NCBI GenBank assembly: GCA_964393745.1
Contig: CAYMVA010000054.1
Location: 16,406 to 80,405 of the forward strand
Source of the DNA: an uncultured Enterobacteriaceae bacterium
Lineage (GTDB): Bacteria > Pseudomonadota > Gammaproteobacteria > Burkholderiales > SG8-39
Reading direction: 5' to 3'
Length of the DNA: 64,000 bases
Made by a program: the position numbers and the translations under genes
In this document: positions 12,301-57,045 of the stretch, piece after piece
Layout of the letters: the number at the start of each line of letters is the position of its first letter
Numbering within the stretch: the first letter of the stretch is position 1
Notes under the pieces: generated by a model
What the model saw: only the letters and a program-made list of their open reading frames with translations
Databases searched by the model: none
Told to the model about the DNA's origin: nothing

Positions 12301-12404
12301 GATTTTCCGGTTACATGCGGTTACAGACGTTGCATTTGCTACATCACACGGCGGGCCCGCTCGTGCGTCAATGTTCACGGGCACTCACAAGAAAGGAGCC
12401 TGCC

Positions 12405-18101: not shown

Positions 18102-18204
18102 GAAATCGAGGTCAGAGTTCGATTTCGACGAAACAAGGTCGATTTTCGGAAACCGGGGACAGACCCCGAAAATCGAGAACCAAGAAGAACCGGGGTCTGT
18201 CCCC
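18102..18204. repeat. Family B REP-like cluster: GAAATCGAGGTCAGAGTTCGATTTC hairpin plus GGGGACAGACCCC/GGGGTCTGTCCCC doublet
   Basis: Hairpin at 18102..18126; doublet arms at 18155..18167 and 18192..18204. Confidence 0.85.
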
Positions 18205-18223
18205 ATAGCGAAAGGAGGAAAGG

Positions 18224-24286: not shown

Positions 24287-24697
24287 GTGCTGGTCGTCCT
24301 CGACAGCAACGTTCTGCTGAGCGCGCTGCACTCGGGGCTCAGCCCTCCGGCGCAGATCGTGGAGGCATGGCGCAAGGGCCGCTTCCGGCTGGTGACGAGT
24401 CTCGATCAGATCGCGGAGTTCAAGCGGGCGGCGCGCTATCCGAAGCTGCGCCCATTTCTGCCGCGCGGCGCCATCGGCCGCGTGGTCAACGAGTTGCGTT
24501 CGGCGGAGGTACTGCTCGAGCGTTTGCGGCGCGCAGGCGAGTCGCCGGATCCGGGCGACGACTACCTGCTGGCGATGGCGATCGCGGCGGGCGCCGATTT
24601 CCTCGTCACCGGCGACAAGCTTCTGCTTGCCGTGAAGCGGGCCGGGCACGCACGGATCGTCGCGCCGCGCAGCTTCGCTGCCATGCTCGCCCGTTGA
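24287..24697 (+). CDS. PIN-domain putative toxin
   Basis: VVLDSNVLLSA, DPGDDYLL and LVTGDK motifs. Confidence 0.85.
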   Translation: MLVVLDSNVLLSALHSGLSPPAQIVEAWRKGRFRLVTSLDQIAEFKRAARYPKLRPFLPRGAIGRVVNELRSAEVLLERLRRAGESPDPGDDYLLAMAIAAGADFLVTGDKLLLAVKRAGHARIVAPRSFAAMLAR

Positions 24698-27626: not shown

Positions 27627-28520
27627 ATGAATGACCCCATGACCCAGACGAAGATAGACCAGCGCGTGCTCGACCTGTACGACGAGTATTGCCACGGCCG
27701 CATCGACCGGCGCAAGTTCCTGGGCCGCGCCGCCGCGCTCACCATCGGCGGCGTGTCGGCGCTCGCCATGGCGCAGGCGTTGCTGCCGCGTTACGCCCAG
27801 GCGCAGACGATTTCCTTCACCGACCAGCGGATCAAGGCGCGCTACGTGAGCTATGCGTCGCCCGGCGGCAACTCGGGCAACATGCGCGGCTACCTGGTGC
27901 AGCCTTCGGGCCAGGGGCCGTTCCCGGCGGTGCTGGTGATCCATGAGAACCGCGGGCTCAATCCTTACATCGAGGACGTGGCGCGGCGCGCCGCCGTGGA
28001 TGGGTTCCTCGCCCTTGCGCCCGACGGCTTGTCGCCGGTCGGCGGCTACCCGGGCAACGACGACGACGGCCGCGCACTGCAGGCCGGCCTCGACCAGGGC
28101 AAGTTGCGCACCGACATGCTGAACAGCGCGCGCTTCCTCAAGTCGCACCCGATGTCGAGCGGCAAGCTCGGCGCGACCGGCTTCTGCTCGGGCGGCGGCA
28201 CGACCAATTATTTGGCGGTTGCGCTGGGCGCCGACATGCAGGCGGGCGTGCCGTTCTACGGCCCGGCCGCCGGGACCGACGGCGTGCCGAAAATCAAGGC
28301 GGCGCTGCTCATCCAATATGCCGAGAACGACGAGCGCATCAACTCGATGTGGCCGGCGTTCGAGGCGGCATTGAAAGCGAACGGCGTCCCGCACCAGATG
28401 CACATGTACCCCGGCACCCAGCACGGCTTCCACAACAACTCCACACCGCGCTACAACGAGGCGGCGGCCAAGCTCTCGTGGGAGCGCAGCATCGCGTTCT
28501 TCAAACAGCACCTCGCCTAA
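27627..28520 (+). CDS. Dienelactone hydrolase family protein (YghX-like)
   Basis: DLYDEYCHGRIDRRKFL, IHENRGLNP, GFC-S-GG nucleophile elbow and HGFHNNSTPRY motifs. Confidence 0.88.
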   Translation: MNDPMTQTKIDQRVLDLYDEYCHGRIDRRKFLGRAAALTIGGVSALAMAQALLPRYAQAQTISFTDQRIKARYVSYASPGGNSGNMRGYLVQPSGQGPFPAVLVIHENRGLNPYIEDVARRAAVDGFLALAPDGLSPVGGYPGNDDDGRALQAGLDQGKLRTDMLNSARFLKSHPMSSGKLGATGFCSGGGTTNYLAVALGADMQAGVPFYGPAAGTDGVPKIKAALLIQYAENDERINSMWPAFEAALKANGVPHQMHMYPGTQHGFHNNSTPRYNEAAAKLSWERSIAFFKQHLA

Positions 28521-28523
28521 ATC

Positions 28524-28590
28524 GGGGACAGACCCCGATTATTCTGCCTAAGTAACAGATAGTTAAGCGAGAAAATCGGGGTCTGTCCCC
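28524..28590. repeat. Family B inverted doublet, 67 bp, filling the gap between convergent genes
   Basis: GGGGACAGACCCC at 28524..28536 and GGGGTCTGTCCCC at 28578..28590; abuts both stop codons. Confidence 0.88.
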
Positions 28591-28593
28591 GGT

Positions 28594-29229
28594 TTACTCC
28601 AGCAGGTCGTCGAGCGCGCCCTTGAGGTGCGCGCAGTCGGCCCACGCCAGCACGCGCCACTCGCCGCCCTCGATCACGATGCGATTAATGCCCGCGTTGG
28701 GAATGCGGAAGTCGCGCTGCGAGCCGAGCAGCCGGCCGGTGGCGCGGCGGAACAGCTTGTCGAGCACGCCGCCATGGGTGAAAACAAGAACGTTCTCTCC
28801 CGCATGACGCTCGGCAAGCTCCGCGATGCAGTGCAGCGAACGCTCGGCGAAGGCGCGCAGGCTCTCGCCGGTGCGAAAGTCGAACTCCGGCTCGCGCGCG
28901 AGGAACCTGGCGAATTCCTCCGGGTAGCGCGTCTCGCACTCGGCGTAGGTCAGCGTCTCGAAGACGCCGTAATGACGCTCCCGCAAGCGCTCGTCCAGCG
29001 CCACCTCGAGCCGCAGCGCCTGCGCCGCGGGTGCCGCGGTCCGATGAGCGCGTGACAAGTCGCTCGAATAGATGGCGCTGAAACGTTCGCTTGCGAGCGC
29101 CGCGCCGACCGCCTGCGCCTGGGCAAGGCCGATCAGGTTCAACGGGATGTCGAGCTGGCCCTGCACGCGCCGTTCGGCGTTCCAGGCGGTCTCGCCATGC
29201 CGCACGATGCACAGATTGGTCGCAACCAT
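28594..29229 (-). CDS. Histidine phosphatase (phosphoglycerate mutase-like)
   Basis: RHGETAWN, SSDLSRA, LRERHYG and THGG motifs. Confidence 0.88.
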   Translation of the reverse strand: MVATNLCIVRHGETAWNAERRVQGQLDIPLNLIGLAQAQAVGAALASERFSAIYSSDLSRAHRTAAPAAQALRLEVALDERLRERHYGVFETLTYAECETRYPEEFARFLAREPEFDFRTGESLRAFAERSLHCIAELAERHAGENVLVFTHGGVLDKLFRRATGRLLGSQRDFRIPNAGINRIVIEGGEWRVLAWADCAHLKGALDDLLE

Positions 29230-42679: not shown

Positions 42680-43652
42680 TCTTCGCTTCCTTCACCACGC
42701 GACCCCAGATCGCGTACTCGCGCTCGATGTAGCGCCCGAAGACCTCGCCCGTGCTCGGCGCCGGCTCCATGCCGTGCGACATGAGCTGCTCGCGGATCTC
42801 GGGGATGGCGAGCGCGGCCAGCAGTTCGCGCTGCCAGCGCTCCACGATCTCGCGCGGCGTTTTCGCCGGCGCGATCAGTCCGTACCAATTGATCGCCTCG
42901 TAGCCCGGATAGCCCGATTCCGCCACCGTCGGCACTTCCGGCATCGCGGGCGAGCGCACGGTGCCGGTCACCGCAAGGGCGCGGATCTTGCCCGCCTTGA
43001 TGTGCGGGCCCGCGGTCACTGGCGTGGCGAAGATGGCGGCGATCTGGCCGCCGAGCAGGTCGGTCATCGCCGGCGCGCCGCCCTTGTAGGGCACGTGCAC
43101 GATGTCCACCTTGGCCATCATGCGCAGCAGCTCGCCCGAGAGATGGCCGATGTTGCCGATGCCGGAAGAACCGTAATTGACGCTGCCGGGCTTGGCGTTC
43201 GCCAGGCGGATGAAATCGGCGAGCGAGTTCGCCGGCACCGAGGCGTGCACCACCAGCACGTTGGGAAACGCCACCGCCATGCCAATGGGCACGAAATCGC
43301 GCAGCGGATCGTAGGGCAGCTTGGCGATCATGTGCGGCGCCACCACCATCGGGCCGGGGGAGACCAGCAGCACGGTATGGCCGTCGGGCGCCGCCCTGGA
43401 GAGAATCTCGTTGGCGATGTTGCCGCCGGCGCCGACGCGGTTTTCCACCACCACCGGCTGGCCCATGGTCTCGGAAAACCTTTTTGCGAGGATGCGTGCC
43501 GCAGTGTCGGTGCCGCCGCCGGGCGCGAAGCCGACCATTAGCGTGATCGTCCGGCTGGGAAAGGTGCCCTGCGCCAGCGCGCCGCCAGCGAGAAAAGCGG
43601 CCAACGACGCGGTAAGCAATGCGGCGAGCGCGATGCGAAGAGCGCGCATCAT
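42666..43652 (-). CDS. TctC/Bug substrate-binding protein
   Basis: FPSRTITLMVGFAPGGGTD and ENRVGAGGNIA motifs; ATGA coupling to the kinase gene. Confidence 0.9.
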   Translation of the reverse strand: MMRALRIALAALLTASLAAFLAGGALAQGTFPSRTITLMVGFAPGGGTDTAARILAKRFSETMGQPVVVENRVGAGGNIANEILSRAAPDGHTVLLVSPGPMVVAPHMIAKLPYDPLRDFVPIGMAVAFPNVLVVHASVPANSLADFIRLANAKPGSVNYGSSGIGNIGHLSGELLRMMAKVDIVHVPYKGGAPAMTDLLGGQIAAIFATPVTAGPHIKAGKIRALAVTGTVRSPAMPEVPTVAESGYPGYEAINWYGLIAPAKTPREIVERWQRELLAALAIPEIREQLMSHGMEPAPSTGEVFGRYIEREYAIWGRVVKEAKITAN

Positions 43653-44974
43653 GCAGTTCCACCATCCTTGACTGCGGCTTGCGGCGCGGCGCGCGCATTG
43701 GAGAACGCGAGCCGGTCGCCCAGGTTGCGGACCAGCGCGCGCATCAGGTGCAGCTGCGCGCCGACGCTCATTTTCTCCAGCGCCTCCTGCTCGAATTCGG
43801 CCAGCACCAGCTCGGTCATGGACTCGATGGTCGCATGCCGCGGCACCTCGCCGCCACGGATGTAGGACATCTCGCCCACGAACTCGCCTTCCTTGATCAG
43901 GTTGAGCAGGCGCCCGCCGCGGATCACCTTGGCCTCGCCCTTGGCGATGAAGATAATGGTCGCGCCCGGCTCGTTCTCCTTGATGATCGCGCGCTTCGGC
44001 GTGGCGCGCGACCAGCGCCCCGCATTGACCAGCTCCCAGATCTCGGCCTCGGAAAGCGCCGCCAGCATCGGCACCTGCTTGAGCGAGACGAACTTCTCGC
44101 TGTCGGGGATCTCCACCGCCGAGAGCATCAGCTGCCCGGCACCGGACAGTTCCTCGGCGAACGCGCCCCAGCTCGGATAGCGCTCGGCGGGCGATTTCCT
44201 CAGCGCGCGCAGCACCACCGCGTCCACCGCGGGCGGGATGCCCTGGCGCAGGGCCGAAGGCGGCGCCGGCTCCTCGGCGATGATCTTCTGGATCAGCGCC
44301 TCGAGGCTGTCGGCGTGAACCGGGCGCGCGCCGGTGAGCAGCTCGTAGATCACCACGCCGAGCGCGTACATGTCGCTGTGGAAGGTGACCGGCTCGCCGG
44401 TGAGCTGCTCGGGCGCCATGTAGAAGGGCGAGCCCATTGCCGCGGTCTGCACCGTCTGCGTCGTTCGCAGGTAGGCGGCGCCGAAGTCGGAGATCTTCAC
44501 GTCGGTGCCCTTCACCACCATGATGTTCGCCGGCTTGATGTCGCGGTGGACGATCCCTTCCTTGAACGCGTACTCGAGCGCGCCGCAGCACTTGAAGCCG
44601 ATCTGCAGCACGTCGGCGACCGGCAGCAGCTTGTCCGGCGCGGCGAACTGCGTGAGCTCCCCTCCCGTCACCAGCTCCATCGCGATGTAGCCGGAATTCT
44701 TCTCCACCACCGCGTCCAGGATGGCGGCGATGTGCGGGTGGCGCAGCTTCCCCGCGAGCGAGGCTTCGTTCAGGAACTGCGCCCGGTGCACCTTGCCGAA
44801 CTCCGGGTCGCGGAACACCTCGGGCTCGATCGTCTTCAGCGCGACGAGGTTGCCCGAGAAGGTGTCCTTCGCGAGATAAACCGTGCCGGTGGCGCCCTTG
44901 CCAAGGAGCTGCTGGATCTCGTACTTGCCGACCTGCAAGTCGAGACTGAGGGTGAAGCCGGGCGACGCGCTCAC
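43649..44974 (-). CDS. Hanks-type Ser/Thr kinase with C-terminal cyclic-nucleotide-binding-like domain
   Basis: GKGATG, VALK, HRDIKPAN, SDFG, GSPFYMAPE and SDMYALG motifs; C-terminal GEFVGEMSY....RHAT. Confidence 0.88.
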   Translation of the reverse strand: MSASPGFTLSLDLQVGKYEIQQLLGKGATGTVYLAKDTFSGNLVALKTIEPEVFRDPEFGKVHRAQFLNEASLAGKLRHPHIAAILDAVVEKNSGYIAMELVTGGELTQFAAPDKLLPVADVLQIGFKCCGALEYAFKEGIVHRDIKPANIMVVKGTDVKISDFGAAYLRTTQTVQTAAMGSPFYMAPEQLTGEPVTFHSDMYALGVVIYELLTGARPVHADSLEALIQKIIAEEPAPPSALRQGIPPAVDAVVLRALRKSPAERYPSWGAFAEELSGAGQLMLSAVEIPDSEKFVSLKQVPMLAALSEAEIWELVNAGRWSRATPKRAIIKENEPGATIIFIAKGEAKVIRGGRLLNLIKEGEFVGEMSYIRGGEVPRHATIESMTELVLAEFEQEALEKMSVGAQLHLMRALVRNLGDRLAFSNARAAPQAAVKDGGTA

Positions 44975-44978
44975 GGTC

Positions 44979-45485
44979 CTAGGGCGTGCCGATGAAATCG
45001 CCCTTGCCGAGTTCCACGCCGCTGTGGCGCAGGATGCCGTAGGCGGTGGCGGCGTGGAAATAGAAATTGGGCAGCGCGAAGCCGAGCAGGTACTGAAGCC
45101 CGAGCCACTTCACCTCGCGCTTGCCGAGCTTGATCTCGATCGCCTTGTCCTCGGTGCCGTCGAGCTGCGCCGGCTTGAACGATTCCACCAATTGCAGCGT
45201 CTTGGCGATGCGCGCCTTGAGCTCGGCGAAGGTCTGCTCGGTGTCCTCGTGCTTGGGGACCTCTGCGCCGACCAGCCGCGCCACCGCGCCCTTGGCGGTG
45301 TCGCACGCGATCTGCACCTGGCGCGAAAGCGGGAACATATCGGGGTAGAGGCGGGCTGCGAGCAACACGGCAGGGTCGATCTTCTTGGCCTCGCAGTGCG
45401 CCTGCGCCTTGTCGAGCATCGCGGCGAGGTTGCGCAGCGTGTTGGCGAAGCGCGGCACGCTCGCCTGATACATGGAAATATTCAT
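44979..45485 (-). CDS. DUF1993-family protein
   Basis: LYPDMFPL.RQVQIACD, LPNFYFH..TAY.ILRH.GVELGK.DF motifs. Confidence 0.85.
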   Translation of the reverse strand: MNISMYQASVPRFANTLRNLAAMLDKAQAHCEAKKIDPAVLLAARLYPDMFPLSRQVQIACDTAKGAVARLVGAEVPKHEDTEQTFAELKARIAKTLQLVESFKPAQLDGTEDKAIEIKLGKREVKWLGLQYLLGFALPNFYFHAATAYGILRHSGVELGKGDFIGTP

Positions 45486-45535
45486 CCGGGCTTCCGTAGA
45501 ATGGACGCAAAGATAATTGTCGCACGCGCCCGAAA

Positions 45536-46618
45536 GTGCTGCCCGACGCCCCACGCCGCATCATCCACCTCGACATGGACGCGTTTTACGCTTCGGTCGA
45601 GCAGCGCGACGACCCGGCGCTGCGCGGCAAGCCGCTCGCGGTCGGCGGCTCGCCGCAGTCGCGCGGCGTGGTGGCGGCGGCGAGCTACGAAGCGCGCGCC
45701 TTCGGCGTGCGTTCGGCGATGCCGATGTCGCGTGCCCTCCGCCAGTGCCCCGAGCTGCTGATCGTGCGGCCCGATTTCGCGCGCTACCGCGCGGTGTCGC
45801 AGCAGGTGATGGAGATCCTGCGCTCGGCGACGCCGCTGGTGGAGCCGTTATCGCTCGACGAAGCCTACCTCGACGTTACGGAAAACCTGTGGGGCGAGCC
45901 GCTCGCGGTCAACGTGGCGAAGCGCCTCAAGCAGCGCATTCGCGACGAGCTCTCCCTGACCGCGTCGGCCGGCGTAGCGCCGAACAAGTTCCTCGCCAAG
46001 ATCGCTTCGGGCTGGCAGAAGCCCGACGGCCTGACGGTGATCGCGCCCGAGCGCGTCGAGCGCTTTCTGCAAAAACTGCCGGTCGAGGCGCTCTGGGGCG
46101 TAGGGCCGGTGACCGCAAAGAAGCTGCACGCGATCGGCATCGAGCGCCTGGTGCAGGTGCGCGACGCCGACCCGGTGCTGCTGCAGCGCACCGTGGGCAG
46201 CCTCGCCGACTGGCTCGCGCGCCTGGCGCAAGGCGACGATCCGCGCCCGGTGCGCCCCGACCGGCCGTGGAAATCGCGCTCGGCGGAAACCACCTATGCC
46301 GAGGACCTCGAAGAGCTGCGCGAGATGCGCGCCGAGATCGAGCGACTGGCGCGCCGCGTCGCGGAGATGCTGGAGAAAAAAAGCCTGTGCGCGCGCACCG
46401 TGACGATCAAGGTTCGCTATCCGGATTTCACCACCGTGACGCGCAGCCACACCGCCGATGCGCCGACGCGCGACGGCAGCGAAATCGCCTCGCGCGCGCT
46501 GGCGCTGCTCGAGCGCACCGACGCCGGCCGCAGGCCGGTGCGGCTGCTCGGCGTCGGCGCACACGAGCTTGCGGGCGACGGCGACTATCCGCCCGCTCCA
46601 GGCGTGCTGCCGTTCTGA
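45536..46618 (+). CDS. dinB: DNA polymerase IV
   Basis: IHLDMDAFYASVEQ, ASYEAR.FGV, SLDEAYLD, NKFLAK and WGVG motifs. Confidence 0.93.
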   Translation: MLPDAPRRIIHLDMDAFYASVEQRDDPALRGKPLAVGGSPQSRGVVAAASYEARAFGVRSAMPMSRALRQCPELLIVRPDFARYRAVSQQVMEILRSATPLVEPLSLDEAYLDVTENLWGEPLAVNVAKRLKQRIRDELSLTASAGVAPNKFLAKIASGWQKPDGLTVIAPERVERFLQKLPVEALWGVGPVTAKKLHAIGIERLVQVRDADPVLLQRTVGSLADWLARLAQGDDPRPVRPDRPWKSRSAETTYAEDLEELREMRAEIERLARRVAEMLEKKSLCARTVTIKVRYPDFTTVTRSHTADAPTRDGSEIASRALALLERTDAGRRPVRLLGVGAHELAGDGDYPPAPGVLPF

Positions 46619-46627
46619 GGGTGTCGC

Positions 46628-46875
46628 GACGCGCCGCCCGGTGCCGCCGCCTTCCCCAGTGCCGCGAAGAAAATCGGGGACAGACCTGAATTCTGGGTCT
46701 GTCCCCGATTTTCTTTACCCTCGCCTCATTGCCGCGGTCGTCGGCCGTCTGCGGAACTCGCCCCTCGCTGAAGCGGCTCGGGCTCGGACAATCCTCGCCG
46801 GATCTCCTTCGCCCGCGGCCCAGCTCCGCGCGGCACGATGGGGACCCCTTGCGGCGGCGCCGGGCGGCGCTCGTC
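46628..46875 (+). mobile_element. MITE-like element, left copy, with ~20-bp terminal inverted repeats and an internal family B palindrome
   Basis: Ends GACGCGCCGCCCGGTGCCGCCGC / GCGGCGGCGCCGGGCGGCGC(T)CGTC; internal palindrome at 46667..46715; no ORF of known function. Confidence 0.7.
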
Positions 46876-47055
46876 AGGGCGATTGCTCGCGCGTTGCGGA
46901 GAAAACCGTTTGCGCGCGATGTCCCTTTGCGGCCAAGGAAGGTCATTGGGAGCGAGACATTGTCAAGGGCAATTCAATTGGCCTTGCGTTCAAATGCGCC
47001 CGCTACCAACGTGCGACTCCAGCGAGTAATTTTGGTACCGGTAGAGAGATTGCTT

Positions 47056-47859
47056 TCATCGAAAAGCTGGCACTTGGCTATTCCCGCTGGCAAATACCGC
47101 ACTGCTTTGGCTGGGCTGTGAGATTGGAATTCGCGGCTTATACGCTTCAGCCCAAGCAATAAATTCCTTTACGTAACGCTCTCTCGCCTCGTCCTTGGAA
47201 ATTCGGTCACGGTGAAATGGGTTAGATACCCAAACTGTTTCGGCTGAGTCCAAATCACGCATTGCAGGATTGGCGGTTATGGTGACGGTCAGAAATCGGC
47301 GGGTAAGACTCTGCGCAAACGTTGCCGCTAGTACTGTTGTGGGAATATCGATATCTTCCTTCGTCATCCAACTACGAAGATCCGGGAAAAGACCAGTTCC
47401 CGGCGCGCGCAAGTAACCTACAAGGTGGTTTACCAACAGACAGTTAACCACGACGCCACCGGAATCGTAGGGATTCCTGTAAAGCGTGTCTGTACGCTTG
47501 CATGGATCATCGACGCTCAAAGATCCGACTCTCGCTGGAAGTGTGTCTTTTGAGGCCTCGATACGTATTGTCATTGCAATCCGAGAACCGACACGTTGGA
47601 CAAGGAAAATATCAAGCCTGATTGGTGCCATGTGCTGATCGCCGGGACTGAGCATTCGCATTTCTTGTTCCACGGCGCGAAATACCTGCCACTCGCCGCT
47701 AGGTAGTGGGATTTTCATACGTGCCTGCCCTTGACCCACGAACAGTTCATCTTTAATCACAGTCCCAGGTCGAAGCCCTATGTCGTCCGCGAGTGCCTGC
47801 GAACATATTGCTGCCGCACAAGCGAACGCCACGATCTTTGAAGTTGTTCGAATCGACAT
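47056..47859 (-). CDS. Low-GC orphan secreted hypothetical protein
   Basis: Long open frame in a visibly AT-richer segment; AAGGGGG RBS; signal peptide ending QALA-D; no recognisable family. Confidence 0.7.
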   Translation of the reverse strand: MSIRTTSKIVAFACAAAICSQALADDIGLRPGTVIKDELFVGQGQARMKIPLPSGEWQVFRAVEQEMRMLSPGDQHMAPIRLDIFLVQRVGSRIAMTIRIEASKDTLPARVGSLSVDDPCKRTDTLYRNPYDSGGVVVNCLLVNHLVGYLRAPGTGLFPDLRSWMTKEDIDIPTTVLAATFAQSLTRRFLTVTITANPAMRDLDSAETVWVSNPFHRDRISKDEARERYVKEFIAWAEAYKPRIPISQPSQSSAVFASGNSQVPAFR

Positions 47860-48040
47860 ACACGCATCCCCCTTTGTGACCATTGATTCGGCTAATTGCA
47901 AATCGGCGCGGCCGACGATGAATCTACGAAGCAGCAGCGAGCGTCGGAATCAGCGAGCGCAGAGCCGAGTTAACTCCGGTCGGCACTTAGGCTACACCCG
48001 GAATCGCCGCTATGGGTCGAAAGCGGCCGCCACTGTATCC

Positions 48041-48312
48041 GACGCGCCGCCCGGTGCCGCCGCACGGGGCCCCCATCGTGTCGCGCGGAGCCGAGCCGCG
48101 GGCGGAGGAAACCCGGCGAGGATTGCTCGAGCCCGAGCTGCTTCAGCGAGTGGCGAGTTCCGCAGACGGCCGACGCACGCGGCAATGAGGCGAGGGGAAA
48201 GAAAATCGGGGACAGAGCCCGATTTCGCTTCTGCAAATCGCTGTGGCCGAAATCGGGCTCTGTCCCCGATTTTCTTCGCGGCACTGGGGAAGGCGGCGGC
48301 ACCGGGCGGCGC
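48041..48312 (-). mobile_element. MITE-like element, right copy, inverted relative to the left copy
   Basis: Reverse complement aligns with 46628..46875 at about 90% by hand over the non-loop part; same terminal repeats; internal palindrome at 48199..48276 has a different spacer. Confidence 0.72.
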
Positions 48313-48318
48313 CACACG

Positions 48319-48350
48319 GCAAAAGTGTAAAGCGTGACTTTACACTTTGC
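48319..48350. repeat. Family A palindrome (AAAGTGTAAAGC-GTG-ACTTTACACTTT)
   Basis: Lies 6 bp outside the right MITE-like copy. Confidence 0.88.
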
Positions 48351-48364
48351 CTCGCTGCGCCCCG

Positions 48365-49843
48365 CTAGCCGGCGGCGGGATCGAGCGGGAAGATCGGCCG
48401 CCGCACGCGGCTGAACTTGAGCTGCGAGTAGTCCGAGGTGCACACGCCGGTGCCGGCGCACTCGACCACCGCCTTGGCGAGCGGCCCGAGGCCCGCGCGC
48501 CAGTGCACGCGGCTTTTGAGCATCAGGTAGCGCTTTTTTGCCGGCTCGAGGCCGAGGACGCGGAACGGGGCCATGTCGTAAGGCTCGGTGTGGCGCGAGA
48601 TCACTGCGATCTCGATTTTTCCGGTGTCGAGCACCGCCGAGGGGCCGAGATCACCTTCGGCCCCCTTCGCCATCGGCCCCTCATTGCGATATTTGCCCTC
48701 GACCAGGCGCTTCACCTTGCCGCTCACCGTGCGCGGCTTGCCCTTCAGCCCGAGCGAGGGCATGTCGAGCTTGCCGCCGAGCTCGAGCGTCACGTTGGCC
48801 CCCGCGCCTGCGGCCTGCATCTGCGCCACCGCCTTGGGATCGAAAACCGCGAACGCCGCCGCATCTTCGAGCCCGGCATCGAGCATCGCGCCGAGCACCG
48901 TCATCGTGTCCATGGTGCCGCCCGAGGCGCAGTTGTCGTAATGGTCGAGCAGCACCACCGGCCGCGCCTTGATTCCAGCGGCGCGGGCGAGCGATTTTTC
49001 CAGCAACTCGACCTCGTACACGAACCTGGCGCGATCGCGCCACGCCATGTCGAGCAGCTCGTCGCACTCGCGCCGCGCGCGCGCCGCATCGCCTTCGGTC
49101 ACCACCACGGCTGAAGAGCCCGCATAGGGGATGTCGGCGTGCGGGAAGCCCACGAAGAACGTCGCCGCGAGCGTTCCGGCTTTCTCCATGTCCTTGGCGC
49201 GCTGCTGGATTTCCTTGTTGGGCGAATCCAGGCTCGCCTGGCGCATCACGTGCGGCAGCATCGGGCGGTGGCCGAAAGCCATCGCAGGCTTCGATTTACC
49301 ATCCAGCATCGCGAGCACCGGCCGCCCAGCGCGCAGACCCGTGTCGTACATGTCCACGTGCGGATAGGTCTGGTAGCCCGCGAGCACGGTAGCGTGCTCC
49401 GCCATCGCGGGAAACAGATTGGTGTGCATGTCGAGCGCGACGCCGATCGGCACCTTCGGCGCCACTTTCCGGATGCGGCGCAGGAGTTCCCCCTCGCCGT
49501 CATCGAACCCCTCGGGCACCATCGCGCCGTGCAGGTCGAGCAGGACCGCATCGCAGCCCTTGGCCACGGCCTCCACGATCCGCCCCGCCATCCATTCGTA
49601 AGCGGCGCTCTCTACGCGGCCGCTCGGTGCCGCGTCGCCTGCCACCGGGAACACCGCGCTCGCGCCCGCTTTCTCCGCGAGATCGATGAACGCGCCGATT
49701 GCCGTGCCCGTGCCCTTGAATGCGGCGCGCACCGCCTCGCCTTGGTGTGGCTTCGGCCCGCCGTGCGCAAACCGTACCAGCGGCGTCGGCACCGGCGAGA
49801 AGGTGTTGGTTTCGTGCTTCATCTGCGCGATGACGAGGCGCAT
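48365..49843 (-). CDS. M81 (MlrC-like) metallopeptidase
   Basis: HETNTF, LDLHGAM, DMHTN, TYPHVD and LKSRVHWRA motifs. Confidence 0.88.
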   Translation of the reverse strand: MRLVIAQMKHETNTFSPVPTPLVRFAHGGPKPHQGEAVRAAFKGTGTAIGAFIDLAEKAGASAVFPVAGDAAPSGRVESAAYEWMAGRIVEAVAKGCDAVLLDLHGAMVPEGFDDGEGELLRRIRKVAPKVPIGVALDMHTNLFPAMAEHATVLAGYQTYPHVDMYDTGLRAGRPVLAMLDGKSKPAMAFGHRPMLPHVMRQASLDSPNKEIQQRAKDMEKAGTLAATFFVGFPHADIPYAGSSAVVVTEGDAARARRECDELLDMAWRDRARFVYEVELLEKSLARAAGIKARPVVLLDHYDNCASGGTMDTMTVLGAMLDAGLEDAAAFAVFDPKAVAQMQAAGAGANVTLELGGKLDMPSLGLKGKPRTVSGKVKRLVEGKYRNEGPMAKGAEGDLGPSAVLDTGKIEIAVISRHTEPYDMAPFRVLGLEPAKKRYLMLKSRVHWRAGLGPLAKAVVECAGTGVCTSDYSQLKFSRVRRPIFPLDPAAG

Positions 49844-49856
49844 GGCCGGATCGATT

Positions 49857-50951
49857 CTACTTTCTCGGCTGCGATCCGAGCGCGGCCGTCGCGCGGCGCA
49901 TGACCTGGCGCGCCCGCAGGAACACCATTTCCTTCCAGTCGCTTTCGTCCGGGTAGAAGGCGCGCCGGATCGCCGCCTTCGCGGCGCGGCCCCGGTCGGA
50001 GTCGAGCCGGCCCCTGAGGTGCAGCCAGTTGTCGGCGATGAGCGCAGCCAGCACCTCAGGCACCGGATAGGTGCCGTACTCGATCGTGACCGGGCGCACC
50101 TTGGCGCGCGGCAACGCCCCCACCACGGCGTTGCGGATAAAGCCGGTGAGCGGCGCCGAGCGCGAGGTGCCGGATTCTGGCGAAGTGAGCCCCTCGCCGT
50201 ACCACGCGTTCAGCTCCGACCACTCGGCGGTGCCGGGGCGCGCGTTGCAGATCAGCTCGCCGTAGCCGTAGGGGCCGAGCCCGGTATGCAGGTCTATGAA
50301 AGCGACGTGGCGCGCGCGCTTGAGGAATTTGGCGACGATGGCGTAGAAGGTGCGGTTCGACCACGTCGGCCGCTCGCCGCCGTAGAAAACGCCGTCGGCG
50401 TGGCGGTACTGCCCGCCGCTCACCGCGCCCTGCAGTGCCATCGCGCCGCGGCGCGCGGTGTATTCGGTAAAAACCCAATCGCGCGCGGCGATCGAGGCCT
50501 CGTCCCAGCGCTGCGGCACGATCGCCGCGTGCAGCTCTTCGTAGGCCGCGTTGACGGGCAGCGGCTTCGAGAAATCCTGGAAATTGCGATTCAGGTCGAC
50601 ATTGTCCTCGGTGACGCGCCGCAGCCAGGCGAAGCCATGCGGATTGATGGCGTGCACCAGCACCGCCGCAACGCCGCGCGGCAGCCGCCGCCACTCGCCC
50701 GAGCGCAGCCACCCTACGAGGATGCCCGAGCCGCAGAACCCCTCCACGCCGTGCGTCGCCGAGTTGGCGAGCAGCAGGCATTGCGCACGCGGCGCCCCCA
50801 CGCGCACGACGTCGGTGAAAAGCGCCTCTCCCGCAGGTCCGCGCGCAGGGTGGCGATAGCTCGTGACCTTCAGCCGCGCTGCGGCGGCGGCCGCCAGAAA
50901 CTTGTCGCGCGCCTGCACGTAATCGCGCGCGAAGTAGCTCGCTGCACTCAT
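49857..50951 (-). CDS. M14-like metallopeptidase (DUF2817)
   Basis: SATHGVEG, NPHGF...RRVTEDNVDLNRNF, DLHTGLG and IEYGT motifs. Confidence 0.85.
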   Translation of the reverse strand: MSAASYFARDYVQARDKFLAAAAAARLKVTSYRHPARGPAGEALFTDVVRVGAPRAQCLLLANSATHGVEGFCGSGILVGWLRSGEWRRLPRGVAAVLVHAINPHGFAWLRRVTEDNVDLNRNFQDFSKPLPVNAAYEELHAAIVPQRWDEASIAARDWVFTEYTARRGAMALQGAVSGGQYRHADGVFYGGERPTWSNRTFYAIVAKFLKRARHVAFIDLHTGLGPYGYGELICNARPGTAEWSELNAWYGEGLTSPESGTSRSAPLTGFIRNAVVGALPRAKVRPVTIEYGTYPVPEVLAALIADNWLHLRGRLDSDRGRAAKAAIRRAFYPDESDWKEMVFLRARQVMRRATAALGSQPRK

Positions 50952-50980
50952 GCTGCTAGTCCTCCTCCCGAAGCGGCGCG

Positions 50981-51871
50981 CTACGCCGGCGCCGCAACCT
51001 TGATGCGTTTGACCTGTTCCTTCGACAGCGCGCCCGATTGGTAATCGGCGATCGCCTGCTCGATCTCCTCGCGCGTATTCATGACGAACGGGCCGTACTG
51101 CACCACCGGTTCGCGAATGGGCTTGCCCGCGAGCAGCAGCACGCGCGCGCCGGCCTCGCGCGCCTCGATGCGCACCGTGTCGCCATCCGAAAGCAGCCCC
51201 GCCGCGCGATGCGGCAGCAGCTTGCGCTCTTCACCCACCACCGCTTCGCCCTCGTAGGCGTAGAGAAACGCGTTGTGCCCTGCGGGCACGGTGGTTTCGA
51301 ACGCGGCGCGCGGCGCAAGGTGCACATCGAAGTAGCGCGGATCGGTCGAAAGGCCGTGCATCGGGCCGGTCGTCGTCCGCCCGCCGTGCGCGAGCGTTCC
51401 CGCGATCACCTTCACCGTGACGCCCAGCCCCGCCTCGACCACCGGAATCTGCGCCGCAGGAATGTCGGCGTAGGCCGCGGGCTTCATCTTTTCCTTCGCC
51501 GGCAGGTTGAGCCAGAGCTGGAAGCCGCGCATGCGGCCCTCGGCCTGCTGCGGCATCTCAGAGTGCACGATGCCGCGCGCCGCAGTCATCCACTGCACGT
51601 CGCCCGGACCGAGGTCGCCGGTGTTGCCGCCGCTGTCCTGGTGCCGCATATGGCCATCGAGCATGTAGGTCACGGTCTCGAAGCCGCGGTGCGGGTGCGC
51701 CGGAAACCCAGCGAGATAGTCGTTCGGATCGTCGGAGTAGAACTCGTCCAGCATCAGGAACGGGTCGTGGCGCAGCATCGGACTCGCACCCACGCTGCGG
51801 CGCAGCTTGACGCCCGCGCCATCGGAAGTCGCCACAGAAGGGATCACTCGCTGCAGGGTTCGAATTGTCAT
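50981..51871 (-). CDS. Pirin-family protein
   Basis: DPFLMLDEF, HPHRGFETVTY, HSEMP and YGPFVMNT motifs. Confidence 0.9.
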   Translation of the reverse strand: MTIRTLQRVIPSVATSDGAGVKLRRSVGASPMLRHDPFLMLDEFYSDDPNDYLAGFPAHPHRGFETVTYMLDGHMRHQDSGGNTGDLGPGDVQWMTAARGIVHSEMPQQAEGRMRGFQLWLNLPAKEKMKPAAYADIPAAQIPVVEAGLGVTVKVIAGTLAHGGRTTTGPMHGLSTDPRYFDVHLAPRAAFETTVPAGHNAFLYAYEGEAVVGEERKLLPHRAAGLLSDGDTVRIEAREAGARVLLLAGKPIREPVVQYGPFVMNTREEIEQAIADYQSGALSKEQVKRIKVAAPA

Positions 51872-54033: not shown

Positions 54034-57000
54034 TCAGGGCGGCCACGTGCGCCAGCCCTTGAGCAGCGGGAAATACAGTGCCGGGCGCGCGCCGCCGAGC
54101 GCCGCCGCGTAGCGCTCCAGTTGCGCGCGGTAGCGCTCGTGCTCCTGGTCGAGAAAGCTCTCGACGTCTCCGCCCTTGTGAGCGCCGGTCTTGAAATCTA
54201 CTACCCAGCGCGCGCCGCTTTCGTCGGTCAGCACGCGATCGATGATCTGGCGCCCGGCTGCGGTGCGGATGCGGTATTCGCTCCGCGCCTCGGGATGCTG
54301 GCCGAGGAGCCAGCGGCCGCGCTCGTCGCTGATCGAGTTCTTGAGGGCGTTCGTGACGAGCTCGGCGGCGCGCTCGAGTTCACCTGCCGGGACGCCTCGC
54401 TGGCCCAGCTCGGCGCGGAACCGGGCCCGCAGCCGCTCGACGCGCTCCGCGTTCCAGCCGTCGAGAGCGTCCTCGGCGATCCGCTGCAGCCAGCGGTGTA
54501 CGACAGTACCGGCGTGCCGCGCAGTTTCGCCAGCCCAGGAGAACTCGATCGGGGCTGCAGCGGCCAAAGTGTAAAGTGGGACTTTACACTTTGCCGCCTC
54601 GGGGGCGGTTGGGAGCGTCCATGCGGCCGGGATGCGGTGGAGAACATCGCTTTCACCCCCCACCCTCACCCCTGGCCCCTCTCCCGCAGAGCGGGAGAGG
54701 CGAACCACAGCAGCAAACTGCCAGACCTTGGCGAGCAGCGAGCGCTTGCCGGGGGGCCTCGGTGAGCCGTCGTCGTCGAGCTTCACACAGCCTAGCAGGT
54801 GGATGCGCTGCTTGGCGCGCGTCGAGGCAACGTAGAGCAGACGCCCGGCTTCGGTGTCCTCGGCCTCGCGCTCGAGCGCTTTCAGGTAGTCGTAGGCGCG
54901 ATTCTCCTCGGCGCCGGTCTCGTGGATCGGCGCGAGCAGCAGCTGCCCATCCGCGCGCGCTTTCCACAGGAAGAGCGGCGGCTCGCCGTGCGCCGGCGTG
55001 CGGTCGAGCCCCGGGATGATGACGCTGTCGAACTCGAGCCCCTTCGCCTTGTGGATGGTCATGATTTGCAGGCGCTCGCCGGCCTCGAGATCGGGGAGTG
55101 CATAGAGCTGCTCGAGCGCTTCGGCGAGCACTTCGGGGTCCTCGATGTCGCCCGCTTCCTCGAGACGCTCGAGCTCGTCGAGGTAGATCTCGACATCCTC
55201 GAGTTCGGTGCGGTCGTCCACGCAGGCCGGGCCGCCGAGCGCGAGCCAGCAGCCCTCTACGCGGTCGCGCAGCGTGCCGCGCAGGCGGTGAATCATCGCC
55301 TGGCCGAGCGGCTGCCAAACGCGCATGAGGCGCTTGCGTCCGTCTTCGGATAGCGCGCACACGACGCGGTCGTCGTTCATAAGCTCCCAGATGGCGCGGG
55401 CCCCCGCCTGCGCGGGGGTGACGGATGGGGTCGCAGGGGTGACGAGTGCATGCAGGTCCGCGAGGGTCAGCCCGCACCACGGCGCGCGCAGGATCGCGAG
55501 CCAGGCGATGCGGTCGGCGGGGTGCATGAGCGCGCGCGTAAGCGCGTAGAGGTCCTGCACCGCCTGCTTCTCGCCGAGCCGCTCGATCTCGATGGCGCGG
55601 AAACGCAGGCCCGCCCCCTTGAGGGCCGGCACGATCTCGTCCAAGTGCCTGCGGTTGCGCACCAGGATGGCGCAGGTTCCTTCCGCCTTTGCCGCGAGCG
55701 CCGCAACCTGAGCGGCTTCCGACTCGCGCTCTTCAAACAGATGCCACTCGCACGCCTCGCCTTCGAGCGGCGCATGGTGCGGCGTCGAGCGCGCATACGG
55801 CACCGCGCCCGCGCTTTCGTCCTCCGCTTGCGGGAGCACGCTCGGGAAGGTCGCGTTCACCCACTCGACCACGCGCGCCTGCGAGCGGAAGTTGGTGGAG
55901 AGCGTGAGCGGCTCGAGCGTGACGGAACCCAGCCCTGCGCGCCGCGCGTGCAGGAACAGCGCCACCTCGGCCTCACGGAAGCGGTAGATGGACTGCATCG
56001 GGTCGCCCACCAGGAACAGCGTGCGATCGGAGCCCCGCTTTTCGTCGCCTCGTTCCCAGCCCGCGGTCAGGCGCTCGAGCAACTCCCACTGGCTGATCGA
56101 GGTGTCCTGGAACTCGTCCACCAGGATGTGGTGGATGCGGTGGTCGAGCGCGAGCAGCAGGTCGGTCGGCGAGTCGGGGGAGCCGAGCGCGCGCAGGGCA
56201 CCCTGCGCGATTTCCGTGAAGTCACACTTTGCCCTTTCGGCGAATACCACCTTGAGCTGCGCCGCGGCGAGCGGCAGCAGCGCGATGATCGCCTCCAACG
56301 CCTCCCATTGCGCCGCGCTGTAGCTGGCGGGCGGCATGGCGGGGAGCGCCGCGAGCGCGGCGCGCAGCGGCTCGTTGCCGGCGAGCGCCTGCGCCTGCTT
56401 GTTCTTCTTGCGCCACTCGCCCTTCTTGGTGAGAAGCTCCTGCGCGAGCGCTTCGCTTGCTTCCGGCAGCATTGTGCGCGCGCTGTCCAGCAGCCGCTGC
56501 CGCTCGCGCGCGAGGCCCTGCTCAATCTCGGCGCGCGAAGGCGGGTTGCCGGTCTTGCGCAGCCACTGGTCGCGCCGCGCGAGCATCGCGGCGAGAAGCT
56601 GCGTCGCCAGCGCAGCATTGTTGTCCAGGTGCGCGAGGAAGCGCTCAACCGGCGCGCCCAGGCCGGCGACGGTGCGTGCGGCAGCTTCGCGGTACATCTC
56701 GCCCGCGTCCTCCACAGTCTCGGGCTGGGCGCCGAACTTGGCGAGCACCGGCATCTGGCGCGTGAGCGAAGCGCAGAAAGCGTCGATCGTCATGATGCGC
56801 AGGCGGTGCGCGATGTCGCCAGCGTTGGGCAGCGCCTTGAGCACGCGCGCGCGCATCTCCGCGGCGGCTTTGCGCGTGAAGGTGATGGCGAGCACTTCCT
56901 CGGGCTTCGCGGCGCGCTCGAGCAGCGCGAGGTAGCGCTTGACCAGCAGGTCGGTCTTGCCCGAGCCCGCGGGCGCCTGCACGATGAACGAGCGCGCCGG

Positions 57001-57045
57001 GTCGAGGGCGCGCTCGCGCACCGCCTGGTCGGCTATCATGTCCAT
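54034..57045 (-). CDS. addA: AddA-like UvrD helicase with C-terminal PD-(D/E)XK nuclease
   Basis: QAPAGSGKT, ITFTRKAA.EM, LVDEFQDTS, VGDPMQSIYRFR, IMTIHKAKGLEFD, LYVASTRA and IDRV...VDFKT motifs. Confidence 0.85.
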   Translation of the reverse strand: MDMIADQAVRERALDPARSFIVQAPAGSGKTDLLVKRYLALLERAAKPEEVLAITFTRKAAAEMRARVLKALPNAGDIAHRLRIMTIDAFCASLTRQMPVLAKFGAQPETVEDAGEMYREAAARTVAGLGAPVERFLAHLDNNAALATQLLAAMLARRDQWLRKTGNPPSRAEIEQGLARERQRLLDSARTMLPEASEALAQELLTKKGEWRKKNKQAQALAGNEPLRAALAALPAMPPASYSAAQWEALEAIIALLPLAAAQLKVVFAERAKCDFTEIAQGALRALGSPDSPTDLLLALDHRIHHILVDEFQDTSISQWELLERLTAGWERGDEKRGSDRTLFLVGDPMQSIYRFREAEVALFLHARRAGLGSVTLEPLTLSTNFRSQARVVEWVNATFPSVLPQAEDESAGAVPYARSTPHHAPLEGEACEWHLFEERESEAAQVAALAAKAEGTCAILVRNRRHLDEIVPALKGAGLRFRAIEIERLGEKQAVQDLYALTRALMHPADRIAWLAILRAPWCGLTLADLHALVTPATPSVTPAQAGARAIWELMNDDRVVCALSEDGRKRLMRVWQPLGQAMIHRLRGTLRDRVEGCWLALGGPACVDDRTELEDVEIYLDELERLEEAGDIEDPEVLAEALEQLYALPDLEAGERLQIMTIHKAKGLEFDSVIIPGLDRTPAHGEPPLFLWKARADGQLLLAPIHETGAEENRAYDYLKALEREAEDTEAGRLLYVASTRAKQRIHLLGCVKLDDDGSPRPPGKRSLLAKVWQFAAVVRLSRSAGEGPGVRVGGESDVLHRIPAAWTLPTAPEAAKCKVPLYTLAAAAPIEFSWAGETARHAGTVVHRWLQRIAEDALDGWNAERVERLRARFRAELGQRGVPAGELERAAELVTNALKNSISDERGRWLLGQHPEARSEYRIRTAAGRQIIDRVLTDESGARWVVDFKTGAHKGGDVESFLDQEHERYRAQLERYAAALGGARPALYFPLLKGWRTWPP
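54565..54593. repeat. Family A palindrome in frame within addA (encodes KCKVPLYTL)
   Basis: CAAAGTGTAAAGT-GGG-ACTTTACACTTTG; perfect 13-bp arms; AT-rich island in a GC-rich CDS. Confidence 0.9.
54663..54700. repeat. Family D element (CCCTCACCCC...CCTCTCCCGC-AGA-GCGGGAGAGG) in frame within addA
   Basis: Perfect 10-bp stem at 54678..54700 preceded by a C-rich tract; encodes RLSRSAGEGPGVR(V). Confidence 0.8.
55398..55443. repeat. Family C element (GTCACCCCCGCGCAGGCGGGGGCCC on minus strand) plus a partial copy, in frame within addA
   Basis: Encodes VTPATPSVTPAQAG; same hairpin as 21402..21427. Confidence 0.8.

Follow-up and report, generated by a model that had tools for sequence, protein, structure and literature searches.

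The window, i.e. the whole stretch of 64,000 nt that was analysed, carries at positions 46631–48312 a unit composed of a foldback repeat (arm A), a foreign segment with one gene (the cargo) and a second, inverted copy of the repeat (arm B), with no transposase inside. The unit lies between two convergent core genes, dinB and an mlrC-like gene, recognised from their Pfam domains (IMS and M81/MlrC, respectively). All data used here are metagenome assemblies. The locus comprises the following features, where TIR denotes a terminal inverted repeat:

45536..46618, plus strand: dinB, Y-family DNA polymerase IV, core gene (Pfam IMS, IMS_C, IMS_HHH; GC3 0.89)
46627..46875, plus strand: arm A, full foldback repeat, outer to inner end (nhmmer E=9e-75)
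46631-46650 and 46851-46870: outer and inner TIR of arm A (19/20 match)
46667-46715: collapsed single REP hairpin of arm A
46699-46734: invariant core of arm A, 36 nt
46876..48039, no strand: foreign cargo segment, 1,164 bp, 53.1% GC vs 67.5% in the window
47056..47859, minus strand: cargo gene, 267-aa secreted protein with signal peptide (GC3 0.48), the single ORF of the segment
47980..48033, plus strand: 54-nt motif with hairpin core CCGCTATGGGTCGAAAGCGG, found once in the window, between cargo ORF and arm B
48040..48316, minus strand: arm B, full foldback repeat, outer to inner end (nhmmer E=3e-71)
48044-48063 and 48293-48312: inner and outer TIR of arm B (20/20 match)
48199-48276: full REPIN-like doublet of arm B
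48318..48351, no strand: family A palindrome, REP-like, 3 copies in the window with 0 expected
48365..49843, minus strand: M81-family (MlrC-like) metallopeptidase, core gene (Pfam DUF1485 (M81) and MlrC_C)

Only 8–12 nt separate the dinB stop codon from the start of arm A. On the opposite side, the family A palindrome is located 5 nt outside the outer TIR of arm B, at a distance of 13 nt from the stop codon of mlrC, and it is probably the terminator common to dinB and mlrC. The top match of the mlrC product in a protein homology search is 97% identical, and the named homologues at 76–87% are MAGs labelled Betaproteobacteria or Burkholderiales. ARAGORN detected no tRNA or tmRNA gene at the unit boundary (44000–51000), such as would mark a tRNA-targeting genomic islet.

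The cargo segment is the only part of the window below 55% GC, and its ORF differs strongly in GC3 from the neighbouring genes (0.48 vs ~0.87); a foreign, horizontally acquired origin of the cargo is supported. The gene is co-directional with mlrC, and its product found no match in Pfam, NCBIfam or PADLOC. We could collect 8 close homologues and 404 distant representative clusters, with Cys120 and Cys140 invariant. The AF2 model (pLDDT 87) gave only weak fold matches, which are UTRA/GntR-effector-domain-like with a query-normalised TM of at most 0.30. A tblastn search of the cargo against plasmids returned nothing, and exact-protein look-ups of the window's DinB, MlrC and cargo found none of them on record. 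Since no arms surround the cargo homologues at loci L001–L004 and L019, the cargo has never been seen travelling with arms. In L001 the 54-nt motif lies on either side of the cargo homologue; it occurs twice in L007, and its core is present in 20 IMG/VR contigs; a candidate second copy across the window's cargo (~46917) received no support from nhmmer.

Architecture of the arms

Arm A is 249 bp and arm B 277 bp long. The first-pass annotation had described two inverted copies, about 90% identical outside an internal loop and each with TIRs of ~20 bp, enclosing ~1165 bp of lower GC with one gene between convergent dinB and mlrC-like genes and beside a family A palindrome. The coordinates and compositions listed above bear this description out, and the aligned bodies of the two arms, outside the internal hairpin, are 90.1% identical (BLAST E=1e-78). 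Repeat finding resolves the inverted repeat into a block of 190 nt at 88% (46681-46870 / 48044-48233) and a block of 63 nt at 94% (46622-46684 / 48259-48321). The TIR of both arms is the 20-nt sequence GCGCCGCCCGGYGCCGCCGC, for which four exact sites exist in the 64 kb, all in arms A and B; the only TIR-like site outside arms among the fetched loci lies inside the dinB coding sequence.

Each arm combines the GC-rich 20-nt TIR with a further subterminal inverted repeat of ~13 nt and a nested hairpin of REPIN type with a T-run behind it, in addition to the invariant 36-nt core. A strong hairpin with T-run is present in the arms in both directions, and the RNA fold of arm A reaches -154 kcal/mol (z=-9.1). 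ORFs within the arms have neither a Pfam match nor codon bias, and a translated-ORF search with concatenated six-frame pseudo-ORFs as query found no protein family in them. Rfam, applied to the window region and five loci, gave only spurious miRNA-hairpin matches on the REP hairpin. In the TIR stem, the G–U/C–A pattern is inconsistent in strand from copy to copy, so that covariation in this stem is no argument for RNA, and an interpretation of the stem as structured RNA was rejected. Neither the arms nor their immediate surroundings yielded a promoter-like site. The arms share TIRs, small non-coding size and multiple dispersed copies with bacterial MITEs, and the data support a genuine repeat family of MITE-like anatomy, characterised by TIRs, foldback and the lack of coding capacity.

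The REP unit of the arm hairpin additionally occurs in stand-alone doublets at 12221-12307 and 28519-28598. The arrangement of two inverted REPs with a short spacer fits these doublets and the internal hairpin at 48199-48276, not the whole 250-bp arm. With the Y1_Tnp proteins from L011 and L012 as queries, tblastn detected no cognate RAYT in the window.

The repeat family at other loci

A single exact 21-mer scan, with confirmation by nhmmer at E values of 1e-31 to 1e-75, yielded 9 copies of the repeat at 7 loci, a small sample consisting entirely of metagenome or MAG contigs of uncultured Burkholderiales. A 23-mer taken close to the TIR had given 0 matches in an earlier scan of the genome collection. 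The contexts are high-GC and Burkholderiales-like and stem from several independent samples and one MAG, in which 2 copies reside on different contigs. The repeat, which the first-pass annotation had called undescribed, constitutes a real and apparently undescribed family. Relatives' contigs break off repeatedly within an arm or shortly in front of one, which a multicopy repeat would lead one to expect. Arms A and B differ by at least 8% from every other copy seen, and each is no closer to its partner than to copies from other metagenomes; since they are in addition only 90% alike, the unit either is old or was built from two different copies. Within copies, the TIRs are present and co-vary (GACGTTA with its partner in L014, CAGGCC/GGCCTG in L017), which suggests, at the sequence level, that the TIR ends are maintained.

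A second inverted pair is found at L016, with arms at 611-730 (plus strand) and 1669-1823 (minus strand) and outer ends pointing outward. It encloses ~950 bp of 43–56% GC with small ORFs unrelated to the window's cargo. Paired copies with another cargo, which the first-pass annotation had proposed to look for, thus do exist around foreign DNA, and in no relative was the cargo found at the window's locus without the flanking elements. The L016 arms have either no inner TIR or a degenerate one, and for this reason two intact MITEs landing by chance fit less well than arms that are the ends of a cassette.

Besides dinB and mlrC, the core genes adjacent to arms encode an RND pump (L016), a 170-aa product (L017) and a symporter (L014). 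Both flanks are visible for six copies, namely arms A and B of the window (winA, winB), the left arm L016L, L017, L007 and L014. In all six, the gene on the inner side has a lower GC3 (0.48–0.80) than the core gene on the outer side (0.87–0.97; sign test p about 0.016–0.03), and the inner side of L016R is low-GC as well. The outer end lies behind the 3' end of the core gene in 5/6 copies; in L014, a copy without partner arm, it faces the 5' side. Every visible copy borders atypical DNA and none is situated between two core-like genes; in the window, the single low-GC island has the only two copies on its sides. The distance from outer TIR to palindrome A is 5 nt in winB and L016L and ~14 nt in L017.

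The sister lineage L005/L007 carries an mlrC gene which is 91% identical to that of the window on the nucleotide level. The homology ends exactly at the mlrC stop codon, after which the sister lineage has another hairpin, an arm of another subfamily in the same orientation and other genes. With a body identity of only 61% between the L007 arm and winB, the mlrC-side arms of the two lineages are, judged from their sequences, not orthologous.

Origin of the unit

Known composite units flanked by MITEs carry a target-site duplication. Neither arm A, arm B, the pair, L014 nor L017 is flanked by a direct repeat of at least 3 nt; the left flank of the unit ends in ...GTCGCGAC and the right one begins with CACACGGC..., leaving no duplication around the whole. 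The GC3-filtered ORF list of the window contains no transposase or integrase, with the direct search covering Y1 (RAYT) enzymes only. The first-pass annotation had likewise seen neither a transposase nor a clear duplication, had read the unit as a composite mobile unit and gene-capture device, and had named an empty dinB–mlrC site and a transposase with matching ends as checks. No empty site was recovered, with the more distant relatives being rearranged, and no autonomous element with matching ends was found in plasmid or viral collections (blastn of the arm against plasmids; scans of viral contigs). We therefore infer, rather than observe, that the arms act as movers of the cargo, and the same holds for the type of enzyme that would act on them.

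The sites of integron cassettes, attC, are imperfect palindromes of the form RYYYAAC ... GTTRRRY and go along with IntI. Inspection of the cargo flanks revealed no convincing attC and no integrase-sized ORF nearby, and L007 contains two GTTAGGC cores without paired attC structure. A reading as integron cassette or CALIN was rejected, since the paired R''/R' structure and an integrase are both lacking.

We propose, with a probability of about 45%, that the repeat (~225-275 bp) serves as the end module of small cassettes, which carry accessory genes without being autonomous, occur in an uncultured Burkholderiales clade and land beside REP-like terminators. Such a cassette would run from one outer end through an arm into the foreign gene(s) and through an inverted arm to the other outer end, and in the window it would carry one acquired secreted-protein gene beside a REP-like palindrome. 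An enzyme supplied in trans would act on the two outward-facing ends and insert the unit next to REP-like hairpins with no detectable target duplication, as REP-targeting enzymes of the IS110/IS1111 or Y1/RAYT type do. The hairpin and T-run of each arm might shield the cargo from read-through transcription of the flanking core genes. In an empty site, ...TTCTGAGGGTGTCGCGAC would be joined directly to CACACGGCAAAAGTGTAAAG.... The observed facts from which the proposal starts are that the arms belong to one family, occur in pairs and keep a fixed polarity, that the cargo is foreign and that the arms are associated with the palindrome; the apparently independent gain of an arm on the mlrC side in the window and the sister lineage is counted in support of the proposal.

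The arms could also be resident polar repeats of the BIME/ERIC/Correia-like kind behind the 3' ends of core genes, a history which we consider unlikely, if by no means negligible. With its outer end towards the gene, the repeat would serve as terminator or mRNA-stabilising module; dinB and mlrC would each have gained one, and the foreign DNA would have entered separately at a later time, e.g. by illegitimate repair at palindrome-induced breaks. Inverted arrangement and polarity would therefore arise automatically, and the location of the outer end behind core-gene 3' ends in 5/6 copies, the strong bidirectional hairpin with T-run, the very stable fold, the lack of a target-site duplication and the mere 90% likeness of A and B all agree with it. 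The missing or degenerate inner parts of the L016 arms also look as if an insertion or deletion had taken place between two resident copies. However, resident repeats leave unexplained that every visible copy borders atypical DNA and none lies between two core-like genes, and that the only two copies of the 64 kb and the single island fall into the same intergenic region. L014, with its outer end towards a 5' side, is an exception to the 3'-end rule yet conforms to the accessory-DNA rule, and the non-orthologous mlrC-side copies of the window and L007 speak against residence too. Replacement of the islet appears less probable still: here terminator hairpin, arms and cargo would be swapped as one intergenic segment when related strains take up DNA and recombine by double crossover in the conserved core genes on both sides, with the arms being passengers or extra homology rather than transposase substrates. 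Islets exchanged by flanking homology are known as 'minimal mobile elements'. The end of the window–L005/L007 homology exactly at the mlrC stop, with a different hairpin family, arm subfamily and genes beyond, is what such an exchange would leave behind; it needs neither target-site duplication nor transposase, and it is compatible with cargo homologues and the 54-nt motif elsewhere without arms. Taken alone, it explains neither one arm family beside different core genes (L016, L017, L014) nor the constant polarity and the 5-nt spacing to palindrome A at two unrelated loci.

Two further explanations concern the integrity and orientation of the segment. The window is apparently a metagenome or MAG contig, and contigs of relatives break at the arm repeat, so that contigs might have been joined across ~250-bp repeats and the cargo might lie between dinB and mlrC in no genome. 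We regard such a chimera as very improbable, since the arm–cargo junctions lie in unique sequence and an arm–cargo–arm unit must consequently exist somewhere regardless, since the divergence of the arms from every other copy limits k-mer collapse, and since the same architecture was assembled independently from another sample in L016. Hardly credible is an invertible segment, in which the cargo would flip between the 250-bp inverted arms and thereby switch its expression. While 90%-identical inverted repeats around a single gene would allow for it, no invertase gene was seen nearby, the arms offer no promoter-like site within or beside them, their bidirectional terminator-like hairpins on the outer sides would leave the transcriptional context unchanged upon flipping, and the cargo varies between loci.

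If the arms move genes, as in the cassette proposal, they would represent a compact, enzyme-free vehicle for horizontal transfer of single genes in an abundant yet uncultured soil and sediment clade, and their polarity and fixed REP-like spacing would provide a handle on REP-type repeats, MITEs and gene gain. Such a cassette is invisible to standard annotation, because it has no transposase, integrase or tRNA boundary. If the arms do not move genes, the locus is still a clean case in which hot spots of gene turnover between convergent core genes are marked by structured intergenic repeats. Carried further, and as a long shot, the arms could form a class of gene carriers, hitherto undescribed and devoid of a transposase, in which a foldback end with nested REP hairpin would be recognised in trans by a hairpin-specific RAYT/IS200-type Y1 or an IS110-type recombinase and 'arm-gene(s)-arm' would be inserted at a fixed distance from REP-like terminators with no target duplication. 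This would in effect be a REPIN-like replicator with acquired cargo, and the genes inside would perhaps be delimited by the widespread 54-nt hairpin motif.

Relation to known systems

ERIC/IRU and Correia elements are foldback intergenic repeats with TIRs and strong hairpins, located behind genes, and Correia elements of Neisseria make a TA duplication. The arms resemble them in size class, TIRs, hairpin potential and their place behind genes, whereas ERIC/IRU and Correia elements are abundant and not preferentially paired around foreign genes, and Rfam scans showed no similarity of the arms to either.

REP/REPIN-RAYT systems and the REP-targeting IS110-family element ISPpu9 with its hitch-hiking ssr9 module are closer in kind, as ISPpu9 exemplifies structured non-autonomous modules propagated by a transposase in trans (PMC3116915, PMC3337134, PMC1525189, PMC12288879), and REPs are known IS targets (PMC1525189, PMC12288879). 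Like REP/REPIN systems, the arm holds a REPIN-like doublet whose REP unit is also found alone in the window; further points of likeness are the location of the arms near another REP-like palindrome, at 5–14 nt, and the lack of a target-site duplication. In contrast to REPINs, which measure ~100 nt and are gene-free, the arms enclose genes, and the window yielded neither a RAYT nor a DEDD transposase (direct search: Y1/RAYT). The likeness to ISPpu9/ssr9 is one of description, with no sequence relationship of the arms to them seen.

The movement of passenger genes in trans by MITE pairs and in TIR-bounded cassettes is established (PMC10969869, PMC3913671). MITE-flanked composites comprise Acinetobacter class 1 integrons between identical 439-bp MITEs and IR148-mobilised mcr-5 (PMC10969869). 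As in these composites, two short non-coding TIR-bounded repeats surround foreign genes in the window with no transposase inside, and an enzyme in trans would presumably act on the outermost ends. However, the composites have identical MITEs (PMC10969869), whereas the arms are 90% alike with no visible target-site duplication, hold a fixed polarity to the cargo and a nested REPIN-type hairpin, and lack intact inner TIRs at the second locus. Mobile insertion cassettes (MICs), or 'transporter IS', such as those of qnrD and qnrS2 (PMC3913671, PMC5444012), share with the unit passenger gene(s) without transposase, inverted terminal sequences and a size of 1–2 kb. Their ends are short IS-derived TIRs, accompanied by a target-site duplication and a recognisable parent IS family, whereas the ends described here are structured foldbacks of ~250 bp, which are also found without a partner arm (L014).

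The inverted repeat pair between dinB and mlrC

The first-pass annotation had described two inverted MITE-like copies, each with terminal inverted repeats (TIRs) of its own, around a low-GC segment with a single gene, which repeat scan, BLAST and GC content bore out. The unit comprises:

46627–46875, inverted relative to copy B: copy A of the repeat (sequence reading and repeat scan)
46667–46715: collapsed single REP hairpin in copy A
47056–47859, minus strand: cargo ORF, 267-aa protein with signal peptide
48040–48316, inverted relative to copy A: copy B of the repeat (sequence reading and repeat scan)
48199–48276: full REPIN-like doublet in copy B, with 29-nt arms

The repeat scan yielded two stretches of matching arm, one of 190 nt (88% identity) and one of 63 nt (94%), and BLAST aligned A with B at E=1e-78, with 90.1% identity across the aligned body. 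Both copies carry the 20-nt TIRs GCGCCGCCCGGYGCCGCCGC (19/20 matching in A, 20/20 in B), whose four exact sites in the window all lie within A and B, and folding extended the inverted symmetry by about 13 subterminal nucleotides beyond the TIRs. The whole-copy foldback is unusually stable (−154 kcal/mol on one strand and −160 on the other; z about −9). The difference between the copies lies in the internal loop, the REPIN-like palindrome. The REP unit nested in the arms, AAATCGGGGACAGACCCCGATT, also forms stand-alone doublets at 12221–12307 and 28519–28598; these are intergenic, and a weak third copy is found at 18150–18205.

The enclosed 1,164 bp, with 53.1% GC versus 67.5% for the window, constitute its sole low-GC island. 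As had also been noted on first pass, the unit is bordered by convergent genes, dinB and an M81/MlrC peptidase gene, and adjoined by a REP-like palindrome of family A (palindrome A; 48318–48351). This palindrome, one of only three in the 64-kb window, lies 5 nt outside the outer TIR of B, where outer denotes the TIR beside the REP hairpin and inner the opposite one, facing the cargo. The reported absence of a transposase and of a target-site duplication was met again: reading of the flanks revealed no duplication, whether at single copies or at the A–B pair as a whole, no transposase or integrase was found among the window's ORFs filtered by third-codon-position GC (GC3), and tblastn detected no Y1 transposase in the window. 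We likewise found no tRNA gene at the unit boundary and no sigma-70-like promoter at the arms. Another family A palindrome (54569–54589) lies in frame within ORF 54034–57045 (minus strand), a UvrD/PD-(D/E)XK helicase-nuclease gene, where it translates to ...AAKCKVPLYTLAA... and recurs at the same place in a 91%-identical relative (L005, 3968–3988); tolerance of a REP-type palindrome in coding sequence is unusual.

Relatives of the repeat and of the mlrC locus

MlrC homologues placed the window among uncultured Betaproteobacteria/Burkholderiales, the closest relative (contigs L005–L010) sharing 97% protein and 91% nucleotide identity in MlrC. Homology between the two ends exactly at the mlrC stop codon. 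Past it, the closest relative carries a different hairpin, CCCCTCCTCCCCGAGGAGGGG, a full-length repeat copy of another subfamily in the same orientation as in the window (61% identical to B over the body; nhmmer E=3e-43), and other genes, encoding a DUF2652 protein (GC3 0.80) and a membrane protein of 116 aa (GC3 0.68). Five more contigs, from at least four other sequencing runs, end 37–38 bp past mlrC within a hairpin of the CCCCTCCTCCCCGAGGAGGGG type, as is typical of repeat-caused assembly breaks, and such ends in different runs suggest that this hairpin is a multicopy repeat. The hairpin family, CCsCTCCTCsCCGAGGAGsGG, is seen in L005–L010 and L018 in the first ~40 nt past the mlrC stop, where it replaces palindrome A. 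In two further relatives (L011 and L012; mlrC 84% identical in nucleotides, 85–87% in protein) gene order is rearranged, no repeat copy is present and a Y1-transposase gene lies near mlrC. These Y1_Tnp (IS200/RAYT-type) genes, at 1254–1820 of L011 and 7916–8506 of L012, are 86–87% identical and adjoin mlrC or CreD. An empty dinB–mlrC site was not recovered among the relatives.

Family members were sought with a 21-mer common to A, B and the copy of the closest relative (L007), which matched two copies in one MAG (L013, L014) and four on three metagenome contigs (L015, L016 twice, L017). The nine-copy alignment contains an invariant 36-nt core, GTCCCCGATTTTCTTTNCCCTCGCCTCATTGCCGCG, of which 21 nt are the search probe itself. 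Within a copy the TIRs change in step: L014 has GCGCCGCCCGACGTTACCGC and a partner that matches it, and L017 carries the pair CAGGCC.../...GGCCTG. Both ends are therefore maintained as a pair. A and B are not mutual nearest neighbours, B being 91.8% identical to L017 and A 89.7% to the right arm of L016. Searches of plasmids, viral contigs and Rfam brought up no related sequence, and the family appears to be undescribed.

L016 displays a second pair, in the order RND-pump gene, palindrome A, 5 nt, arm, cargo and inverted arm. The cargo of ~950 bp (43–56% GC) holds an ORF for a lipoprotein of 134 aa as well as small membrane ORFs; the right, inverted arm reaches the contig end, and in both arms the inner thirds are absent or diverged. 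Taking all six copies with both sides visible into account, the outer side invariably faces a core-type gene (GC3 0.87–0.97) and the inner side genes of lower GC3, with a chance probability between ~0.016, counting six copies, and 0.03, counting five loci.

Genes on the inner side of the six copies, with GC3
Copies A and B of the window: cargo ORF, 0.48
Left arm of L016: 134-aa ORF, 0.55
L017: HigBA-like pair, 0.71–0.77
L007: DUF2652 gene, 0.80, and 116-aa ORF, 0.68
L014: SBP-like gene, 0.72

Palindrome A lies outside the outer TIR at the same 5 nt in copy B and the left arm of L016 and at ~14 nt in L017; in L014 its distance from the inner TIR is 22 nt. Just inside the arm, L016 (1488–1616) and L017 (650–779) share a 130-nt module at 77% identity, whose end, CCTTAGG, precedes the first cargo gene at both loci.

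The cargo gene and its associated motif

The cargo ORF has a GC3 of 0.48 versus ~0.87 in host genes, and its protein has no match in Pfam, NCBIfam or PADLOC. Among 5.8 billion proteins, eight were retrieved at E ≤ 0.001, one being the window's own and the other seven all metagenomic. A profile search extended these to 404 representative clusters, mostly of ~250-aa proteins; in no cluster did a Pfam domain map to the core. The cargo protein represents a genuine, conserved family, in which Cys120 and Cys140 are invariant and which has the motif DPCKRxDT...CLLVNH. Its AlphaFold model (60 sequences) is confident (pLDDT 87), its PDB matches being limited to weak ones of the UTRA/GntR-effector type. 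Homologues in L001, L004 and L019 are also low in GC relative to their neighbours, so that the gene appears foreign in each context. Sequence shared between these loci and the window is limited to the coding sequence; no arms surround the homologues, and the window's cargo with arms was seen at no other locus found. In L001 a gene for a Ser/Thr kinase of 848 aa (630–3176) lies immediately upstream of the homologue. The window, too, has a Ser/Thr kinase-like gene (43649–44974), at 2 kb distance from the cargo, but its GC3 of 0.93 is core-like, and the parallel is probably coincidental.

Between cargo ORF and copy B, a 54-nt motif (47980–48033) with the hairpin core CCGCTnTGGGTCGAAAGCGG was observed, which has no Rfam match and probably arrived together with the cargo. 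In L001 it stands on either side of the cargo homologue as direct repeats (3215–3268 and 4348–4406), and in the accessory DNA of L007 two copies (2780–2829 and 3431–3484) bracket the 116-aa ORF. Its core recurs in 20 IMG/VR contigs (L020–L039), where the flanks are unrelated and a locus often has several occurrences; L039 has an MFS–TetR pair enclosed by two inverted copies, with an integrase on one side and an AlpA-like gene on the other. The motif may be a hairpin that is widespread as a boundary or terminator of accessory-gene ('moron'-like) insertions. A 10-mer, TAGGATTTAC, occurs at three independent accessory-DNA junctions (L007 2784, L019 155, L016 1035), overlapping the upstream gene's stop codon in two of three, with ~0.3 occurrences expected by chance in the sequence examined. 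Elsewhere in the window, a predicted PIN-domain toxin gene (24287–24697) follows a small antitoxin-like ORF (23984–24283), the pair sitting between two ABC-type substrate-binding protein genes.

Proposed cassette ends, alternatives and known counterparts

The only two repeat copies of the window and its only island share one intergenic region, a second pair surrounds different cargo and polarity is constant, all of which argues for a mechanistic link between repeat and foreign DNA and for the outer end as the functional boundary. We therefore read the repeat as the terminal module of small non-autonomous cassettes, their mobility being putative. The main competing explanation takes the repeat for a polar structural element at the 3' ends of core genes and has the foreign DNA arrive between two copies already in place; it accounts for the orientation but leaves both the association with atypical DNA and the exception in L014 unexplained. 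Exchange of the whole islet through homologous recombination in flanking core genes would fit the sharp break of homology at the mlrC stop codon, yet not the occurrence of one arm family at unrelated loci with equal spacing. The arm–cargo junctions lie in unique sequence, and an independent sample shows the same architecture, which makes an assembly chimera unlikely.

The gene-capture unit proposed on first pass is partly supported, by the second pair with its different cargo and by the undescribed-looking family; its mobility is putative, and the dinB–mlrC arrangement is a variant of the MITE pair or MIC-like cassette. Of the systems described so far, the arm–cargo–arm unit comes closest to MITE-flanked composites (PMC10969869) and to mobile insertion cassettes, MICs (PMC3913671). 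By analogy, the position of the arms beside REP-like palindromes without duplication may recall IS that target REPs (PMC1525189), above all IS110-type elements in which non-coding modules hitch-hike on the transposase (PMC12288879), while the REPIN nested in the arms would be reminiscent of RAYT substrates (PMC3116915).
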